Below, piece by piece: positions 5,205-52,713 of a stretch of 64,000 nucleotides of DNA. Numbering within the stretch: the first letter of the stretch is position 1; every line of letters starts with the position of its first letter. The translations under genes were made by a program, and so were the position numbers. Source of the DNA: an uncultured Bacilli bacterium (GTDB lineage: Bacteria > Bacillota_I > Bacilli_A > RF39 > UBA660); assembly GCA_947626115.1 (NCBI GenBank), contig CANQQX010000001.1:10000-73999 (forward strand), in the 5' to 3' direction. Under the pieces are notes generated by a model, which saw nothing but the letters and a program-made list of their open reading frames with translations, did no database searches and had not been told where the DNA came from.

Positions 5205-5326
5205 CATCTTATAAAGAGCGATGGAGGGACTAGCCCTAGGAAGTCGCACCAACCTATTTAGTTAGGTGGTAATGCTAGATCTATAAGATAACTTTATACT
5301 CAAGGTTATCTTGGGTGTTTTTTTAT
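5205..5326 (+). promoter_or_regulatory. SAM-I (S-box) riboswitch with an intrinsic terminator in the expression platform
   Basis: tcttataaagagcgatggagggactagccctaggaagtcgcaccaacc...ggtggtaatgctagatctataagat matches the S-box consensus (CTTATCAAGAG..GGAGGGAC.GGCCC..GAA..C.GCAACC...GGTGCTAA...AGATAAG). It is followed by the hairpin aagataac/ggttatctt plus T7, which overlaps the 3' strand of P1. Confidence 0.85.
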
Positions 5327-5402: not shown

Positions 5403-6185
5403 ATGATAGAAAAAGTAAATCCAAGTCATCCTGATAAGATAGCTGATAGAATAGCTGGGGCAATAGTTGATTTAGCTTATACTAAATGTGAAAATCCAAA
5501 AGTAGCAGTAGAGATTTTAATTGGGCATGGTGTATGCCATATAATAATGGAAACATCAGAAAAATTTACAAAAGATGAAGTAGAAAAAATATTAAAGAGA
5601 ATTGCGGGTGATATCAAATTAGATTTAAAAGTTTATAAACAAGATGCACATCTAGCCTTAAATCAAGAAAATGATATTAGATGTGGTGATAATGGTATTT
5701 TTAAAGGTGTACCTTTAACTAAAGAAGAAAAGGAGTTATCAAAAATAGCAAGAGAGATATATCAAGAATATCCTTATGATGGTAAATATATTTTAGATCA
5801 AGACAAATTAGTCATATGTCAAAGTAATGCTTTAAAAGAAGATTTAATTAAAAAATATCCTGAAGCTATTATTAATCCATTAGGTAATTGGACAGGTGGC
5901 ATAAATGTTGATAGTGGTGCTACCAATAGAAAATTAGGTTCTGATATGGGACATAGTGTTACTGGTGGAGGACTACACGGTAAAGATTTATCGAAAGCTG
6001 ATGTTTCTCTAAATATTTATGCTTTTAAAAAAGCTCAAAAATTACAAAAAGAAGTAAATATTAGTTGTGCTATTGGTGATACTTTTGTAGATGGTAAGTC
6101 ATATAAGGAAATAGTTGAAGAAACTAGACAATATATTAAAGAAGTTGGTGGCTTTGAAAAATTTGCTGAATGGGGATTATTTTAA
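5403..6185 (+). CDS. metK: Compact S-adenosylmethionine synthetase (MetK)-like protein
   Basis: N-terminal SHPDKIADRIAGAIVD matches the MetK GHPDKIADQISDAVLD motif. CGDNGIF aligns to GAGDQG, and INPLGNW...GGGLHGKDLSKADVS aligns to INPTGRF...GGGAFSGKDPTKVDRS, all in colinear order. The protein is only 260 aa against about 385 aa for MetK. The RBS is aggaaggag. Confidence 0.5.
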   Translation: MIEKVNPSHPDKIADRIAGAIVDLAYTKCENPKVAVEILIGHGVCHIIMETSEKFTKDEVEKILKRIAGDIKLDLKVYKQDAHLALNQENDIRCGDNGIFKGVPLTKEEKELSKIAREIYQEYPYDGKYILDQDKLVICQSNALKEDLIKKYPEAIINPLGNWTGGINVDSGATNRKLGSDMGHSVTGGGLHGKDLSKADVSLNIYAFKKAQKLQKEVNISCAIGDTFVDGKSYKEIVEETRQYIKEVGGFEKFAEWGLF

Positions 6186-46819: not shown

Positions 46820-46955
46820 TTAATTCATAATTAATCTTTTTAATTTTGGAAAAATGTGTAAATTTGTCTTTTAAAGGAGAATAACATAGAAAATATTAGC
46901 CCTTTAAAAAAGTAAAAAATTGTTATATAATACGATAACATTACAGGGGTGTAAT

Positions 46956-49319
46956 ATGCAAAAAAATGAAATAATTGAACTTATCAACAAAAAAACTATT
47001 GAAGCAAAGAAAATTATTAATGAAATTAATGAATTAAAACTTATGCTTAAAAACTATGATAACAAAATCACAAATAATTATACAAATGAAGAAAAAATAA
47101 ATATTTTTATGGATTATTTTAAAGGTAGAGATAATGTGTATCCGTATCTTTCTATTGATAAAAAAGATCCTAGCAAAAAGTATTATGTACCAAAATGCGC
47201 TAATGAATGGAATAAAAATGTCTGTAATAAAACTATGAATAAAAAATGTAAAGATTGTAATTATTGGCTTGATAAACCAATTGATAAAGAAGTAATTAGA
47301 AATCATTTATTTAATAATAATCATATTGGTATTTATCCTATGTTAGAAGATGAAACTTGTTATTTTCTTGTTTTTGATTTTGATGATAAGAAAAACGAAA
47401 ATGATATAAAAGAAGATGTACTTGCTTTTGCTAATATATGTGATAAATATAACGTTCCAATTTCAATCGAAAGAAGTAGGTCTGGTCATGGATACCATAT
47501 ATGGATTTTTTTTGAAAATAATATCAAAGCATTAACAGCAAGAAAAATGGGAAGTTTACTATTATCAAAAACAATGGAAATAAGAGATAATTTAAAAATA
47601 AATTCTTTTGATAGAATGTTTCCTAATCAAGATACTATGCCTAAAGGTGGCTATGGCAATTTAATTATGCTTCCTTTTCAAAATGAACCTATGAAGTGTA
47701 ATAACACAGTTTTTTTAGATAGGAACTTTAATGTTTATAATGACCAATATTATTATTTAGCTAAAGTTAAAAAAATGAGTTATGATGAAGTTCTAAGTAT
47801 TATAAAAATATTATCTGAAAGTACAATAGACATTAGTAGTGAAAATATAGAATTAAAAGAAGAAATAAATAAAAAAGAAAAAAATAATTTTGATTTTCCA
47901 AAAAGTATTAATTTAATATTAGATAATATGGTTTATATAGATAAAGCAAATTTAAGTTCAGCAGTTAAAAATTGTTTTAGAAGACTTGCAACATTTGCAA
48001 ATCCAGAATTTTTTAAAAAGCAACGAATGAGAATGTCTGTTCATAATATTCCTATGATAATAGATTGTAGTAAAGAAGATGATAAATATTTGATGCTTCC
48101 AAGAGGAAAATTTGAATATTTATATAATTTATGTAAACAAAATGATATAAAAATGAATATTGTTGATAAAAGAAATAAAGGTAAAAAAATTAATATAAAA
48201 TTTAATGGCAAATTAAGAGAAGACCAACAAGATGCATTAAATGAAATGTTAAAATATGAAAATGGAATACTTGAAGCCCCAACTGGATTTGGCAAAACTG
48301 TTATATGTTGTAAATTAATTGAAGTGAGAAATGTTAATACACTTATTATTACTTTTAATTTATCACTTTTAAAACAATGGAAAGAAAGATTAAAAGAGTT
48401 TTTAAATATTGATGAAGTTGGCCAAATTGGTGATGGAAAAAATACTTTAACAAATAAAATTGATGTAGCAAGTATTAAAGCAATTTATAATGATGGAAAA
48501 TTTAATGATATGGTTAAAAATTATGGAATGATAATTATAGACGAGTGTCATCATTCATCGGCTTATACATATGAAGCTGCCTTGAATATGGTTAATGCTA
48601 AATATGTATATGGTGTATCCGCAACTCCCGAAAAAGAAAATGGACATACACCAATTATTAAAATGCAATGTGGTGATATTAGATATAAAGTTAATATGAA
48701 AGAATATAATAAAAAATTAAATTTAAAAATGAAAGTGTATAATAAAAGTGTTCATTTGAATTTTGTTAATAAAAATGTAACCGATTATAAAATCAATGAA
48801 ATATATGATTTAATATCTAAAGATGTTATAAGAAATGAAGTAGTTATTAAAGATGTGGAAAATGAATTTAAAAGTGGTAAAAATATTCTAGTTTTAACAG
48901 AACGAATTGAACATTTAGAGTATTTGTATGAAAAATTATCTAAAATAACTAACAATATAATTGTATATCGAGGTGGATTAAGTAAAAAGATTTTAAAAAA
49001 ATATGATGAATTAAATGATAACATAAAGAAAAATAATGAAAATAAAATTATAATTGCTACAAGTTCTTGTATTGGTGAAGGATTTGATGATTCTAGTTTG
49101 GAAGTTTTATTTTTAACTATGCCTATATCTAGTATAAATAGAATCGTACAATATACCGGAAGATTACATAGAAAAAATGAAAATAAAAAAGAAATAATTG
49201 TTTATGATTATGTTGATGATAATTTTTCAATGATTAGAAATATGTTTTTAAAAAGAAAGAAAGCATATGAAAAAGTTGGTTATGAAATTATTGAAAATAA
49301 TTGTCAAATGTCATTATAA
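46956..49319 (+). CDS. Fusion protein: N-terminal archaeo-eukaryotic primase-polymerase (AEP/PrimPol-like) domain + C-terminal SF2 DECH-box helicase (ResIII-like)
   Basis: N-terminal half: Cys-rich CANEWNKNVCNKTMNKKCKDCNYW, acidic FLVFDFDD (hhDhD-type motif I) and SRSGHGYHIWIFF (sGxGxH-type motif II), in AEP spacing. C-terminal half: Walker A APTGFGKTV, IIIDECHH (motif II), SATP (motif III) and QYTGRLHR (motif VI). RBS aggggtg before the ATG at 46956; the ORF track starts at 46920. Confidence 0.55.
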   Translation: MQKNEIIELINKKTIEAKKIINEINELKLMLKNYDNKITNNYTNEEKINIFMDYFKGRDNVYPYLSIDKKDPSKKYYVPKCANEWNKNVCNKTMNKKCKDCNYWLDKPIDKEVIRNHLFNNNHIGIYPMLEDETCYFLVFDFDDKKNENDIKEDVLAFANICDKYNVPISIERSRSGHGYHIWIFFENNIKALTARKMGSLLLSKTMEIRDNLKINSFDRMFPNQDTMPKGGYGNLIMLPFQNEPMKCNNTVFLDRNFNVYNDQYYYLAKVKKMSYDEVLSIIKILSESTIDISSENIELKEEINKKEKNNFDFPKSINLILDNMVYIDKANLSSAVKNCFRRLATFANPEFFKKQRMRMSVHNIPMIIDCSKEDDKYLMLPRGKFEYLYNLCKQNDIKMNIVDKRNKGKKINIKFNGKLREDQQDALNEMLKYENGILEAPTGFGKTVICCKLIEVRNVNTLIITFNLSLLKQWKERLKEFLNIDEVGQIGDGKNTLTNKIDVASIKAIYNDGKFNDMVKNYGMIIIDECHHSSAYTYEAALNMVNAKYVYGVSATPEKENGHTPIIKMQCGDIRYKVNMKEYNKKLNLKMKVYNKSVHLNFVNKNVTDYKINEIYDLISKDVIRNEVVIKDVENEFKSGKNILVLTERIEHLEYLYEKLSKITNNIIVYRGGLSKKILKKYDELNDNIKKNNENKIIIATSSCIGEGFDDSSLEVLFLTMPISSINRIVQYTGRLHRKNENKKEIIVYDYVDDNFSMIRNMFLKRKKAYEKVGYEIIENNCQMSL

Positions 49320-49358
49320 TCTTTAAATTTATGGTAAAATAAAAGTAGGGTGACTGCT

Positions 49359-51020
49359 ATGTATAAAAACGATGAAGAATTAAGTAAAATATTAGATGAA
49401 TTATTATTAAACGCAGAAAACGAGTGTGTAGAGTTCAAAAAAGCTGAAAATAATTTTGACGTTGATATTTTAGGCAAATATTTTTCTGCATTGGGTAATG
49501 AGGCAAATTTAAAAAATAAGCAATATTCTTGGATTGTTTTTGGAGTTGATGATAAAACTCACAAATTAACAAATACAAACTTTTACAAAGATAGCAATTT
49601 TAATAAATTAAAAAAGCAAATTTCTGATAATACAACAGATAATATTGGATTTATAGAAATATATGAATTGATAAAAGATAGCAAAAGAGTAATAATGTTT
49701 CAAGTACCAGCGGCTTCGGGAACTCCTATTAATTGGAAAGGGTTTCCTTATGGTAGAAATGGTGAATCTTTAACTTCTTTAACATCAAATAAAATAGAGC
49801 AAATTAAAGCAACAGCAAATTATGATTGGTCAAGACAAGTAATAGAAGATGCAACTATAGATAATCTAGATAAAAAAGCAATTCAAATGGCAAGAGAACA
49901 ATTTAAAATAAAATATAAAGGTAAAAGTATTTCTGATGAAATAGACGATTTATCAGATATTGATTTTTTAAATAAGGCAAAATTGACTTTGAATAATAAA
50001 ATTACAATGGCATGTATGTTATTATTAGGTAATAATGATGATGACTATCTAATGAATGGTTATACACCGAGAATGACTTGGAAATTGTATGATGAATTTA
50101 ATGTTATAGACTATGAACATTTTGGCATTCCTTTTATTGTAAATGTTGAAAAATTAAAAGCAAAGATTAGAAATTTAAGATATAGATATATGGTTAATGA
50201 TAATACATTGTTTCCAAATGAAGTAGATCAATATGATAATTATATTCTTCGGGAATTGATTAATAATTGTATTGTTCATCAAGATTATAAGCTTCGTGGA
50301 AGTATAAATGTTATGGAATTTAAAGATAAACTGATAATAACAAATGAGGGTAATTTTATTCCTGAAACAATTGAAAATGTTTTAAAGGATGGTTTCTCTT
50401 CTCCATATTATAGAAATCAATTTTTGGCTAATGCTATGGTTAATTTAAATATGATTGATACTGTTGGAAGTGGAATAAGAAGAGTATATGATATTCAAAA
50501 GAGAAAATTTTTTCCAATGCCTGATTATGATTTAAGTAGAGATAATCATGTTAAAGTAACTTTATATGGAAAAATTATAGATGAAAAATATAGTAAAATA
50601 TTATTTGAAAAAACAAATTTAGATATAGATAAGGTTATGTTACTTGATAGAGTTCAAAAAAATTATGAAATTACAAAGGAACAATGTGATTATTTAAGAA
50701 AAGATAATTTAATAGAAGGTAGATATCCAAATATTTATATTTCATCTGATATTGCTAAAATAACCGGAAACAAAGAAGAATATGTGTATAATTCCGGATT
50801 AGAAAATGAATTTTATATGGAAATTATTATGAAATATTTGAATGAATATGGTTCAGCAAGTAGAAAAGAGATTGTTGCATTATTGAATGATAAACTTCCT
50901 AAATCATTAGATAATAAGAATAAAATTAATAGAGTAAGATACTTATTAGATGTTCTAAAAAAAGATGGAAAAATTTATAATGATGCAAAATCAGGAGGAT
51001 CATGTTGGAAAGTTAAATGA
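49359..51020 (+). CDS. Schlafen/AlbA_2 + HATPase_c_4 family ATPase (often misannotated as RecG-like), with C-terminal winged-helix
   Basis: N-terminal ENECVEFKKAENNF fits the AlbA_2 (divergent AAA/Schlafen-like) opening. The central FPNEVDQYDNYILRELINNCIVHQDY...IITNEGNFIP fits the HATPase_c_4 pattern. RBS tagggtga before the ATG at 49359; the ORF track starts at 49350. Confidence 0.55.
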   Translation: MYKNDEELSKILDELLLNAENECVEFKKAENNFDVDILGKYFSALGNEANLKNKQYSWIVFGVDDKTHKLTNTNFYKDSNFNKLKKQISDNTTDNIGFIEIYELIKDSKRVIMFQVPAASGTPINWKGFPYGRNGESLTSLTSNKIEQIKATANYDWSRQVIEDATIDNLDKKAIQMAREQFKIKYKGKSISDEIDDLSDIDFLNKAKLTLNNKITMACMLLLGNNDDDYLMNGYTPRMTWKLYDEFNVIDYEHFGIPFIVNVEKLKAKIRNLRYRYMVNDNTLFPNEVDQYDNYILRELINNCIVHQDYKLRGSINVMEFKDKLIITNEGNFIPETIENVLKDGFSSPYYRNQFLANAMVNLNMIDTVGSGIRRVYDIQKRKFFPMPDYDLSRDNHVKVTLYGKIIDEKYSKILFEKTNLDIDKVMLLDRVQKNYEITKEQCDYLRKDNLIEGRYPNIYISSDIAKITGNKEEYVYNSGLENEFYMEIIMKYLNEYGSASRKEIVALLNDKLPKSLDNKNKINRVRYLLDVLKKDGKIYNDAKSGGSCWKVK

Positions 51021-51127
51021 TTTGCTTTTTGTCGCTTTTTTGCCGCCTTTTGCTGCTTTTTTGCCGCTTTTTGCTGCTTTTTTGCCGCTTTTTGCTGCTT
51101 TTTTGCCGCTTTTTGCTGCTTTTTTGA
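51021..51127. repeat. GC-rich tandem repeat of about 4.7 x 21 bp (ttttttgccgctttttgctgc), equivalent to about 10 phased T5-6 tracts at about 10.5-bp spacing
   Basis: Read directly from the sequence. The units sit at 51036, 51057, 51078 and 51099, plus a partial unit at 51021. Each unit consists of two tttttgcNgc half-units. Confidence 0.85.
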
Positions 51128-51167
51128 ATTACATTATTGTGCTGAGTTAAAGATTTTTTAAAAAAAT

Positions 51168-51195
51168 TTGACAAATTAAAAAAATTGTGTATAAT
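51168..51195 (+). promoter_or_regulatory. Strong orphan promoter TTGACA-16-TATAAT immediately downstream of the phased T-tract array
   Basis: TTGACA (51168-51173) and TATAAT (51190-51195), preceded by gtg. Confidence 0.55.
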
Positions 51196-51269
51196 TTTAT
51201 AGCAAGTGAGGAGATATAAACAATTTGTGAGCTATCTCGGGTAAAAAACCTACACAATGAATAATTGGA

Positions 51270-51296
51270 GTCACGAATATTGTTCGTGGCTTTTTC
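51270..51296 (+). terminator. Intrinsic terminator closing a ~95-nt transcript from the 51168 promoter
   Basis: GTCACGAA-tattg-TTCGTGGC (8 bp with one G-U pair) followed by T5. Confidence 0.5.
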
Positions 51297-51591
51297 ATAT
51301 TTTAAACACGAATAATAAGGGGAATAGCACCGGTACATTAAAATATGTATTTTTAAAGTGAGTATGTATAAGTTTAAACGAGCTACATAGGGAGTAATTC
51401 TTACACGCATAATTGCGGAGTCACTATCATTTTAATATGGTATTTGACAACGCAATTTTTTATTTTAGTTATAATTGTTATTGATGGGAAAATAATATGT
51501 TATTTATTTAAATAATAACTTAAAAAAAACAAGTTTTTTTAGTATCCCATACCAAAATTAGTCACTGAAAAGTGGCTTTTTAAAATAATTA

Positions 51592-51867
51592 AATATTAAA
51601 GAATTAATTAATTTTTTAAGAGATTTGTTTTTAAAAAGTTTTGCTGGAGTATCAACTAAACATTTACAACAATATTTAGATTGGTTTGTATATCAAAAAT
51701 ATTTAACATATAGTATAGAAATTTTAGAACAACCACAAGTACTTATGAATTATGCACTTAGTAGAAAATCATATATAAAAATTTCTGACATTTACTCTAT
51801 GGATTTTCCAGTTAACATATATGATATTTATTCCGACTATAATTTTTCTCCATCACCTCAAATCTAA
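51592..51867 (+). pseudogene. IS1595-family transposase C-terminal remnant
   Basis: ...FLKSFAGVSTKHLQQYLDWFVYQ matches the IS1595 transposase C-terminal motif (SFWS..K....HVSKKHLQRYLDEFAFRYN). In-frame stops lie immediately upstream, so only about 40 codons of transposase-like sequence remain. Confidence 0.4.
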
Positions 51868-51909
51868 TACACAGCAAAAAAATTAAAAAAATTATATGAT
51901 AAAATTTAA

Positions 51910-52713
51910 ATGAGAGGTGATAATGTGGAAGAAAGAAAAGAAGAAGAACAATTTTATCAAAATCTATTAGTGGCAGGTGATGATTTACCTGAAAATATTG
52001 CTAATACTCCAATTAAGGATTTAGAATTATCTAATAGAATTAAAAATTCTCTTACAAAAAGAATGAGAATAACTACATTAGGTCAATTATTAAGAACTGA
52101 TTATAATTATTTTCTTAGGGCATGTAGATGCCATAGTTATCTAGGAGAACTAGCTATAAAAGAAATAAAAGATTTTATTCATAATTTAGGTTATATATTC
52201 CCTAATGAATACCCATCTATGAAAGAAATTACAAATGCAAAAAAAGCTAAAGGTATAAAATTATTAGAAGATTATGGTTTCTCTACTCGACTTTGTGGTG
52301 CTTTATATAGAAATGGTATTTTTACCCTTGAAGATTTACAAGCTGTTGGTAGTGTAGTAGAAAAACTAGAGGGTGTTGGTCCTATAAAAGTTAAAGAATT
52401 ATATGAAAAATTAGAAAAATTACAAATAGGATTAGAAGATAAAACTCCTGAAACTGTTAAATTAGCAAATCCTAAATTAGTTGCAAATGGTTTAGAATTT
52501 GCCCCAACAGTTGAGAAAATGCAAGAACTTCAACAATCAAATGAAGAAATAAGAAATAGAATTGCACAAAAAGAATTATTATTAAAAGAGTATGAAGAAA
52601 TACTTCGTGAAAGAGAAGACTTGCTTAAAAAGGAAAGAGAATTAGATGATTTGATTGCTAAAAAGTTACAAGAATTATCTAATAACAAAGGAGCTGAAAT
52701 CAATGGACGATAA
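51910..52713 (+). CDS. Protein with two tandem RNA polymerase alpha-subunit C-terminal-domain (alpha-CTD)-like HhH modules plus C-terminal coiled coil
   Basis: IKDLELSNRIKNSLTKRMRITTLGQLL...GELAIKEIKDFIHNLGY fits the alpha-CTD pattern (LeLSvR..N.L....I.T.g.L.......G.....EI...L...G). LLEDYGFSTRLCGALYRNGIFTLEDLQAV...GVGPIKVKELYEKL is a second copy. Confidence 0.5.
   Translation: MRGDNVEERKEEEQFYQNLLVAGDDLPENIANTPIKDLELSNRIKNSLTKRMRITTLGQLLRTDYNYFLRACRCHSYLGELAIKEIKDFIHNLGYIFPNEYPSMKEITNAKKAKGIKLLEDYGFSTRLCGALYRNGIFTLEDLQAVGSVVEKLEGVGPIKVKELYEKLEKLQIGLEDKTPETVKLANPKLVANGLEFAPTVEKMQELQQSNEEIRNRIAQKELLLKEYEEILREREDLLKKERELDDLIAKKLQELSNNKGAEINGR

Follow-up and report, generated by a model that had tools for sequence, protein, structure and literature searches.

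Direct-repeat arrays at the ends of Schlafen-GHKL-HTH genes as probable docking sites of the encoded proteins

In a stretch of 64,000 nucleotides from an uncultured Bacilli bacterium (contig CANQQX010000001.1; the whole stretch is referred to as the window), a gene for a protein with a Schlafen (AlbA_2) domain, a GHKL ATPase domain and a C-terminal helix-turn-helix (HTH) region is directly followed by an array of direct repeats phased with the DNA helix. Across this protein family, the members of which have diverged to 38-45% identity, a direct-repeat array with a period of about 11 bp recurs at the stop codon; one subclade has it in the promoter instead. It is an operator- or iteron-type array at an unusual place, attached family-wide to an uncharacterised class of immune nucleases. 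We consider it probable, at roughly 65%, that the array is the cognate binding-site (docking or operator) array of the Schlafen-GHKL-HTH protein encoded upstream, because the sequence of the array changes together with the last DNA-binding domain of the protein. This domain, a winged helix-turn-helix (wHTH-2, residues 481-553), is proposed as the reader of the array.

Architecture of the Array

The array and the gene that it follows are the following two features:

51024..51126, + strand: tandem array, 4.9 x 21 bp (Tandem Repeats Finder, TRF; homologous arrays at the same position in relatives)
49359..51020, + strand: Schlafen(AlbA_2)-GHKL ATPase-wHTH-wHTH gene, 553 aa (Pfam, AlphaFold2 [AF2], Foldseek, conserved residues)

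TRF calls the array with a period of 21, 4.9 copies, 95% matches and a score of 185, and also returns the half-periods of 10 and 11 with 9.5-9.7 copies. It consists of nine half-units of the form T4-6-G(C/T)(C/T)GC, the cores of which start at 51031, 51042, 51052 and so on up to 51115, with spacings of 11, 10, 11, 10, 11, 10, 11 and 10 bp (mean 10.5 bp). The core GTCGC occurs once, in the first half-unit, and is followed by GCCGC and GCTGC in alternation. The 103 bp are made up of 59 T, 24 C and 20 G without a single A, and their GC content is 42.7%, compared with 23.9% in the 1-kb flanks and 25.4% in the 64-kb window. Allowing at most one mismatch, TTTTTGCNGCTTTTT is matched nine times in the window, in each case within the array, whereas shuffled sequences give an expectation of 0.18 matches, with fewer than nine in each of 100 shuffles. 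Between the TGA stop codon of the AlbA_2/HATPase_c_4 gene (51018-51020) and the array there are 3 nt, and 41 nt separate the end of the array from the -35 hexamer of a promoter at 51168-51195.

The initial annotation of the window had described a GC-rich 21-bp tandem repeat of T-tracts directly 3' of the stop codon of a Schlafen-like ATPase gene and about 40 bp before a near-consensus promoter. Both statements are borne out by TRF and by the coordinates, and the promoter agrees with the consensus at 12 of 12 positions. The details of the repeat were likewise described correctly, except that the "about 4.7 copies" amount to 4.9 and that the first units are degenerate (the GTCGC core; a T4 tract). 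It had also been stated that this is not a CRISPR array, in agreement with units that abut head-to-tail without spacers.

Two further readings of the array were tried and rejected. Open reading frames (ORFs) run through it at 50965-51150 (+) and 51013-51174 (-), but they exist only through the A-free + strand of the array, and the reading frame is not kept in relatives, the arrays of which have pure 11-bp periods and follow other stop codons. As a hairpin or terminator, the array offers just weak self-pairing of GCYGC (z-scores of -2.0 to -2.5). A search of 50900-52000 against Rfam, with E-values up to 10, matched no family.

The Encoded Protein and Its Class

The exact 553-aa protein is on record from the ATG at 49359, the start of the listed ORF being the GTG at 49350. 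Its AlbA_2 domain (PF04326, E = 3e-13) covers residues 23-141 and its GHKL ATPase domain corresponds to HATPase_c_4 (PF13749, E = 8e-15). Among 35 homologues, residues E20, E22, E25 and K27 of the Schlafen domain are invariant or at least 90% conserved; of the GHKL motifs, the N-box residues E299 and N303 do not vary, and conservation reaches at least 90% at D367 and G372. The AF2 model (pLDDT 87) has two winged helices, at 409-460 and 483-552, on the C-terminal side of the SLFN and GHKL domains, and its Foldseek matches include 3LMM, the N-domain of SLFN11 and the GHKL domains of PDK. A separate AF2 model of the C-terminal 154 residues has the same topology. The domain proposed to read the array is the second of the two winged helices:

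50799..51017, + strand: last winged helix (wHTH-2), residues 481-553 (AF2 topology H-b-H-H-b-b)

In the predicted structure, helix 3 of wHTH-2 extends from N519 to K535 and includes R525-x-R527-Y528, while the wing is formed by residues 539-552. The structural neighbours of the C-terminal module are SSV1 F-112, pNOB8 AspA, Fur, histone H1 and Z-alpha, all as weak matches (E of about 1e-2, target TM 0.6-0.84). wHTH-2 is the fastest-evolving domain of the protein: of 159 protein pairs that are 70-99% identical in residues 1-400, 149 show lower conservation in wHTH-2 than in these residues, the average difference being 15 points.

With a Schlafen domain, a GHKL domain and a C-terminal HTH, as judged from sequence and predicted structure, the protein has the domain composition of the class named pSlfn HisKinase-HTH or "Schlatpase-HTH," and is assigned to it here. 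Prokaryotic Schlafens are presented as tRNA-cleaving anti-phage effectors fused to sensor domains, 19.2% of them being pSlfn HisKinase-HTH (PMC13056530). The SLFN+GHKL module was named "Schlatpase" and found in 60,692 proteins, of which >90% carry a C-terminal HTH; ATP drives tetramerisation of Schlatpases, and SLFN-pAgo is held silent in a guide-RNA filament (bioRxiv 10.64898/2026.05.29.728809). The tRNA cleavage and anti-phage activity are known only for other pSlfn classes (PMC13056530; bioRxiv 10.64898/2026.05.29.728809). The proteins described there and the family studied here share the combination of SLFN (AlbA_2) and GHKL domains, the C-terminal HTH, the location in defence islands and a C-terminal "sensor" that evolves faster than the nuclease; in contrast, the sensors characterised there are Ig-like and Argonaute domains. 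Neither repeat arrays beside the genes nor a ligand for the HTH class are described in the parts of the two papers that were consulted (PMC13056530; bioRxiv 10.64898/2026.05.29.728809), and a wider literature search found no earlier description of arrays beside Schlafen-GHKL-HTH genes.

The defence-island context of the family is supported by the downstream genes in 48 loci, which are mostly defence genes. In 14 loci they encode ResIII, nine of these together with HSDR_N (type I hsdR), and the others include SIR2, nSTAND NTPases, PglZ, JetA, DUF499/DUF1156 and a further SLFN-GHKL protein.

Arrays Throughout the Family

In a representative library, 1,779 clusters matched the 553-aa protein with E-values up to 1e-10. 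With an alignment of 35 diverse members, 80 metagenomic loci of 43-76% identity were fetched and 79 homologues were scored, an array being counted when TRF returned 2.5 or more copies with a period of 8-24 in the region from -30 to +170 around the stop codon. Such arrays are found at the stop codons of 48 of the 79 homologues (61%), as against 8 of 183 control ORF ends (4%) from the same loci. The period is 11 bp at 20 loci, 12 bp at 12, 10 bp at three and 21-23 bp at nine; in 34 of the 48, the first unit begins between -27 and +25 relative to the stop codon, and a typical family array has about four units.

The unit itself differs by lineage, with examples such as AAGAGATTTAG, ACGCAATTTAA, ACGAGATTTAG, ATTTATTCAAG and ATTTAACCGAG, as well as AGTTTAAGTAG, ACTTTAGATAA and AAGAATTATTAG, while the unit of the closest relative is TTTTTTGCTGY. 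In most loci the units follow a common plan, in which an A/T run of 3-6 bp is followed by a core of 5-7 bp. Inverted copies of the motif are present in L084, L053, L044 and a paralogue in L109. A sizeable subclade has no 3' array and carries instead three to four copies of TAGTCATAGAA at -66 to -21 of the start codon, together with an inverted copy further upstream, so that its promoter-borne array occupies an operator position. Homologues with 38% identity on plasmids of Rhodobacterales (Alphaproteobacteria) carry repeats of TACGAAAGA or TAAGAAAG in the 62 nt that separate them from the following gene.

The paralogue in L109, also present in L110, is a second, distant Schlafen-GHKL protein, the gene of which has an array of its own with at least 12 copies of GCGTTAAGAT. 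This array is preceded by a palindrome and is long enough to have left an assembly gap of Ns (L109 8544-8640; L110 7953-8095). L109 also has a second small array, ATCTT(A/G)CTTAA x3, at 5730-5765, directly after its T-tract array. A very long series was seen in L103 (4159-4920), where a 12-bp repeat (AAGGATTAGGAG and variants) continues for about 60 units, reaching more than 750 bp past the stop codon.

Because the periods correspond to one or two helical turns and inverted copies occur, these observations point to duplex DNA, rather than RNA, as the functional form of the arrays. The alternative is that the repeats act within the 3' untranslated region as RNA ligand, substrate or antidote of the RNase, in the manner of a type III toxin-antitoxin system. 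The Schlafen domain is an RNase in related proteins (PMC13056530; bioRxiv 10.64898/2026.05.29.728809). There is no terminator between stop codon and array, so that the array is probably co-transcribed, and repeats specific to each lineage are reminiscent of ToxIN-type systems. In these systems, however, the antitoxin repeats of 36-45 nt are located upstream of the toxin gene with a terminator between, whereas the units in the window are far shorter (10-11 bp, 21 bp at most), lie downstream and have no terminator before them. An action at the RNA level is further opposed by periods that cluster at 10-12 and 21-23 bp, the length of one or two turns of B-DNA, by the inverted copies, by the location of one subclade's array in promoter DNA, by covariation with the winged helix and not with the SLFN domain (see below), and by the weak folding of the array; we regard it as improbable.

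Inheritance of the Gene-Array Unit in Bacilli

A pattern scan for at least three consecutive units, covering one genome per species in 185,579 species, returned 14 loci, with a single locus in each matched genome. At 6 of the 14, all in low-GC Bacilli, the array directly follows the stop codon of a homologue, the protein of which ends in YNDAKSGGSCWK[VIL]K. The stop codons at these six loci vary (TGA, TAA or TAG), as does the sequence past the array. The possibility that the repeat is a dispersed element of the REP/BOX type, on which the initial annotation would have yielded, is contradicted by the uniqueness of the array in the 64 kb of the window, by the one locus per matched genome and by the recurrent position at the stop codon of the same gene.

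When the window is compared with relatives that lack the primase-helicase gene found upstream in the window (discussed below), DNA homology starts at 49294-49349, 10-65 bp 5' of the start codon, and stops inside the array or at its end. The left edge of the DNA common to other species defines a further feature:

49328..49358, + strand: promoter-proximal region of the gene (left edge of DNA common to other species)

This region contains an extended -10 element, TGgTAAAAT, at 49332-49340 and a ribosome-binding site, GGGTGA, at 49348-49353, and the corresponding TGnTA(A/C)AAT and GGTGA are conserved in five loci. Since the shared DNA ends at these edges while the flanks differ, the sequence comparison identifies gene promoter, gene and array as the conserved unit, inherited together across species.

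Arrays are also seen without an intact gene. In L010 (7259-7395), the last 16 codons are followed by six units, and in L017 (634-823) the last ~35 codons are followed by mixed TTTCACCAC, TTTTTGCYGC and TTTGCAGAG units. L091 (370-450) has a remnant 3' end with array upstream of an intact copy of the gene, and L007 (6880-7020) has about 17 T-tract units after a fragment of a DUF4143 ATPase gene, with no Schlafen gene in the 8 kb of the locus.

Arrays of this kind could also be slippage-prone minisatellites that hitch-hike at the 3' end of the gene without a function. Copy number does change by one 21-bp unit between samples with identical protein (window vs. L001; L109 vs. L110), and the arrays in L010 and L017 have outlasted the decay of the gene. 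A neutral origin is nevertheless very unlikely in our estimation: position, period and unit plan are kept where protein identity has fallen to 38-45%, and the units are homogeneous within a lineage but unlike those of other lineages; the excess over control ORF ends is large (61% vs. 4%); of ten samples from one human-gut species, nine have the same array and one differs by a single base; and one subclade has moved its array to the promoter.

Array Sequence and the Last Winged Helix

The clearest cases of a joint change are natural mosaics. Compared with the window protein, those of L115 and L116 have 91% identity in residues 1-400 and 84% in 401-480, but in 481-553 identity drops to 44%, and their array is WWTTYGCAGAG as against T5-6GCYGC in the window; the AEP-helicase encoded in L115 is uniformly 85% identical to its counterpart in the window, from end to end. 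In L108, residues 1-405 are 72-87% identical to the L077/L090 group, whereas wHTH-2 is 69% identical to that of L080 and 32-35% to those of L077 and L090, and the array is of the L080 type. A smaller change distinguishes L068 from L073: their wHTH-2 is 80% identical, as against 97% for the remainder of the protein, helix 3 is altered, and the array cores are AAACGC and TACGAGC, respectively. Across lineages, R-x-R-Y in helix 3 (window clade, L029, L030, L115, L036) is found with units containing TTGC, and K-(I/V)-x-N, in many lineages, with TTAG or TTAA units. Given the rest of the protein, array similarity correlates with wHTH-2 identity with a partial rank correlation of 0.126 (permutation p = 0.001), a crude statistic that sets pairwise k-mer similarity of arrays against domain identity; more weight is carried by the mosaics.

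L115 and L108 are independent of each other, and by sequence comparison both exhibit the array motif and wHTH-2 as a co-inherited module. Because wHTH-2 and the array are closely linked, the mosaics are not in themselves proof of recognition, which we consider likely from the covariation as a whole. The initial annotation had listed the AlbA_2 protein among candidate binders of the array, and this proposal fits both the linkage of gene and array and the covariation with wHTH-2.

A Possible Mode of Recognition

DNA binding by the C-terminal module is supported by the two winged helices of the AF2 model and by structural neighbours that are DNA-binding winged helices. A possible precedent is PhoB, the winged helix of which binds 11-bp direct repeats head-to-tail, each with a 7-bp core and a 4-bp A/T spacer; the core is read in the major groove and the wing lies over the A/T minor groove. 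The arrays described here resemble the pho boxes of PhoB/OmpR proteins in their 11-bp period, in cores of 5-7 bp with A/T spacers of 4-6 bp, in the arrangement on one face of the helix and in bent DNA. A unit plan like that of the pho box is seen in the window (T4-6 + GCYGC) and in most family arrays, for example ATTTAG-ACGAG. Unlike PhoB/OmpR proteins, the winged helix has no Trans_reg_C match and no receiver domain, and the arrays are located at the 3' end of the protein's own gene and not in target promoters; binding is established for PhoB and proposed for the family described here. By analogy, the Schlafen-GHKL-HTH protein may work in a PhoB-like manner without being a member of the PhoB/OmpR family.

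On this model, each half-unit of ~10.5 bp would be one site, with the GC-rich 5-mer core contacted in the major groove and the adjoining T-tract in the minor groove. All sites would be on one face of the helix, so that several winged helices of an oligomer could dock side by side; speculatively, arrays of about four units would suit a tetramer. In the clade of the window, the combination of a T5-6 tract and a GC-rich core would add a strong static bend, by which the DNA would be pre-shaped for wrapping. Physical binding, its stoichiometry and its functional output are what we infer from these comparisons.

As for the output, we think that it is control of the Schlafen-GHKL-HTH protein itself, any single output being much less probable than docking as such. 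Autoregulation is favoured by the subclade with promoter-borne arrays. Where the array follows the gene, it might provide negative feedback as a transcriptional roadblock, possibly with non-stop transcripts as a result; it might insulate or control the downstream defence genes; or it might sequester the toxic tRNA-cleaving effector on DNA in an ordered state. For the first of these options there is a parallel in the lac system, where LacI bound to O3, at the 3' end of lacI, is said (in work of Abo et al. from 2000) to act as a roadblock that gives rise to a truncated non-stop mRNA and to tagging by tmRNA. In both cases a site at the 3' end of the binder's own gene would open a route to negative feedback, most arrays of the Schlafen family starting within ~25 bp of the stop codon. 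The lac site is a single palindromic operator, in contrast to a direct-repeat array, and the mechanism for the Schlafen family is conjectural.

Partition centromeres provide a second parallel, namely R1 parC with ten 11-bp ParR iterons, F sopC downstream of sopB, and the site of pNOB8 AspA. Here too, helix-phased direct repeats lie beside the gene of the binder, which binds cooperatively and wraps or spreads on the DNA, and AspA is among the structural neighbours of the C-terminal module. However, no gene for a ParA, ParM or TubZ motor accompanies the Schlafen family, which is found in chromosomal defence islands and joins a nuclease to a GHKL ATPase.

Several points weigh against recognition of the array by the protein. 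Among the 79 homologues, 22-31 lack a detectable tandem array. In the window, the promoter of the gene itself is free of the motif, so that classical autorepression is inapplicable there. A spacing of 11 bp is tight for a 63-kDa protomer at each site. The similarity of arrays measured by k-mers has a Spearman correlation of 0.35 with identity in the rest of the protein, as compared with 0.245 for wHTH-2, and the coding region of wHTH-2 is within 220 bp of the array, so that a single recombination tract moves both. Arrays that outlast the decay of the gene (L010, L017, L091, L007) argue for a role that is partly independent of the gene in cis, or for neutral persistence. Finally, the evidence for docking consists of sequence comparison and of AF2 models of protein without DNA.

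A more elaborate proposal, unlikely in our judgement, is that the array is a cis DNA ligand and serves as a scaffold for an ordered, nuclease-silent oligomer, from which tRNA-cleaving, ATP-driven tetramers would be released by infection cues. The array would then be a DNA "antitoxin" or licence and the DNA counterpart of the guide-RNA filament of SLFN-pAgo, and array and winged helix would co-evolve as an exchangeable specificity module.

Implications for the Schlafen-GHKL-HTH Class

With the cognate docking array as the favoured interpretation, a candidate ligand at the sequence level is available for the Schlafen HTH class, in hundreds of lineages at once. This class is among the commonest of bacterial Schlafens (HisKinase-HTH, 19%; HTH in >90% of SLFN-GHKL proteins), and bacterial Schlafens were recognised as tRNA-cleaving antiviral effectors in 2025-2026 (PMC13056530; bioRxiv 10.64898/2026.05.29.728809). 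L115 and L108 can be regarded as natural "swap experiments," in which winged helix and array have been exchanged as one module, and the regulation of the class becomes directly testable. The arrays would also account for the frequent assembly breaks right after these genes. Should they be ordinary operators, they would still supply an annotation rule and a set of orthogonal protein-DNA pairs.

Predicted Curvature and the Downstream Promoter

With nine T-tracts at a mean spacing close to the helical repeat, the array has the pattern of phased tracts, and the initial annotation had taken it for intrinsically bent DNA. Strong curvature is indeed predicted by three dinucleotide wedge models, for which the metric was the ratio of end-to-end distance to contour length (0.37-0.55 for phased and 0.97-0.98 for unphased control sequences). 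At 0.37-0.57, the array exceeds every other 100-bp segment of the 64 kb in curvature in all three models; the segment ranked next has a ratio of at least 0.72, and the median of the window is 0.95-0.97. Curvature was rejected as the conserved property of the family: 12-13 of 33 family arrays are within the top 5% of curvature of their own locus, compared with ~1.7 expected, an enrichment that falls short of universality. Strong curvature is thus a trait of the T-tract variant and not a conserved feature of the family.

The promoter at 51168-51195 has a perfect TTGACA-16-TATAAT and is preceded by an A/T-rich, UP-like stretch. It has been suggested that the array is an UP element or enhancer of this promoter, and more generally it might have a structural role only, enhancing the promoter by wrapping around RNA polymerase or attracting nucleoid proteins. 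In keeping with such a role, no other segment of the window comes close to the array in predicted curvature, a promoter with 12/12 consensus positions follows it, and family arrays are enriched for curvature. However, it spans about -77 to -180 relative to the promoter, with a separate A/T stretch in the UP position at -40 to -60, and the promoter and the RNA behind it are found just in the same species and not beside the homologous arrays of other species. Most family arrays are little curved, yet they keep position and period, and some are located in operon spacers of 35-60 nt, which are too short for a promoter. The suggestion of an UP element does not hold up against the distance and the lack of conservation of the promoter, and a purely structural role is rather improbable, about on a par with an action as RNA.

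The phased A-tracts of Clostridium perfringens plc are the nearest counterpart of the bent array: in both cases, A5-6/T5-6 tracts in phase with the helix and with predicted curvature precede a promoter in a low-GC Gram-positive genome, the promoter in the window being a strong one. In the window there are nine to ten tracts, in contrast to three in plc, and they are further upstream (-77 to -180) and conserved with the upstream gene rather than the promoter.

Behind the promoter, a structured RNA of ~70 nt was noted at 51204-51276, with an intrinsic terminator at 51267-51293, the 5' arm of which overlaps the 3' strand of the closing stem of the RNA, a riboswitch-like geometry. The same fold recurs at 51355-51426, where 18 pairs are predicted between the copies, seven of them with compensatory double changes. 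When the window and 17 other loci were searched with a covariance model of the RNA, no additional copy turned up, and a blastn search of 51130-51620 against phages gave no match.

The Adjacent Primase-Helicase and the Question of an Origin

Upstream of the Schlafen-GHKL-HTH gene in the window is a gene that led the initial annotation to propose plasmid-type iterons or an origin of replication:

46956..49319, + strand: AEP-TOTE primase-polymerase fused to SF2 helicase (Pfam PF22548, ResIII, Helicase_C; PADLOC PrimPol)

This AEP-helicase gene is beside the Schlafen gene in the window, in L016 and in L115/116, and is absent from L012, L013, L018-27 and L109-114; elsewhere the upstream neighbour encodes a Fic protein, a TM2 protein, YfhO or other proteins. 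The recurrence of the adjacent pair in three genomic contexts suggests a two-gene module, and a literature search on the "TOTE" system found no description. The link that had been drawn between array and primase-helicase was followed through the other genomes and does not persist: most loci that keep gene and array have no AEP-helicase, which is dispensable for the gene-array unit, and in L115, where the array has another motif, it is 85% identical throughout.

The array could be imagined as origin iterons, or as a priming site, on a mobile island served by the AEP primase-helicase next to it. Direct repeats do adjoin a primase-helicase gene, and the two genes recur as a pair in three contexts. 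A further hint could be a metagenome contig of 2,637 nt (L037 1-2637), the sole gene of which encodes a Schlafen-GHKL-HTH protein. Besides this gene it has ~400 nt of GC-rich sequence and, at either end, a long 21/22-bp array, the two termini overlapping exactly over 99 nt. L037 may be a small circle, or the assembler may have collapsed an array-gene-array arrangement; the overlap falls inside the arrays that flank the gene, and a similar arrangement exists on the chromosomal contig L091. Gene and array without AEP-helicase in most contexts, and an L115 array that is altered next to an AEP-helicase still 85% identical throughout, both contradict a function in replication. Matches to the DnaA box are at chance level, with none clustered at the array, and the surroundings of the two island genes (46920-51020) showed neither integrase nor mobility genes. 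A homologue is present in 5 of 72,556 plasmid records, within restriction-modification operons; viral contigs held no relative of the Schlafen protein, and a megablast search of 46900-51900 against plasmids gave no match. An origin is the least probable of the interpretations considered here.

The notion of iterons as such fares better than that of an origin, as protein-binding iterons fit the comparative evidence. As in theta plasmids with RepE, pi or RepA, the direct repeats are neighbours of a gene whose product has two winged helices, and they are specific to lineages in an "incompatibility-like" fashion. Unlike these systems, the family has no homology to Rep proteins and its loci have no DnaA boxes or A+T-rich unwinding element; the period is 11 bp, not 17-22 bp, and the family is rare on plasmids.

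Other Features of the Window

Downstream of the RNA copies, an 80-aa ORF at 51625-51867 (+) looks by eye like the C-terminal fragment of an IS1595-type transposase, with no Pfam match. The segment 51530-51810 is flanked by the ends of two metagenome contigs of the same species, L001 and L003, an arrangement suggestive of a repeated element. A 267-aa protein encoded at 51910-52713 (+) has a domain like the C-terminal domain (CTD) of the RNA polymerase alpha subunit (PF03118; NCBIfam rpoA C-terminus), followed by a coiled-coil tail, and is thus a stand-alone alpha-CTD paralogue just downstream of the bent, promoter-rich region. Another tandem repeat at 2749-2832 (unit GACTAATTTAAAGTGAACATACC, 23 bp, 3.7 copies, 73% matches, TRF score 91) is among the higher-scoring TRF arrays of the window. 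The sole Rfam match above the gathering threshold in the window is a SAM riboswitch (RF00162, 64.6 bits) at 5206-5289 (+).

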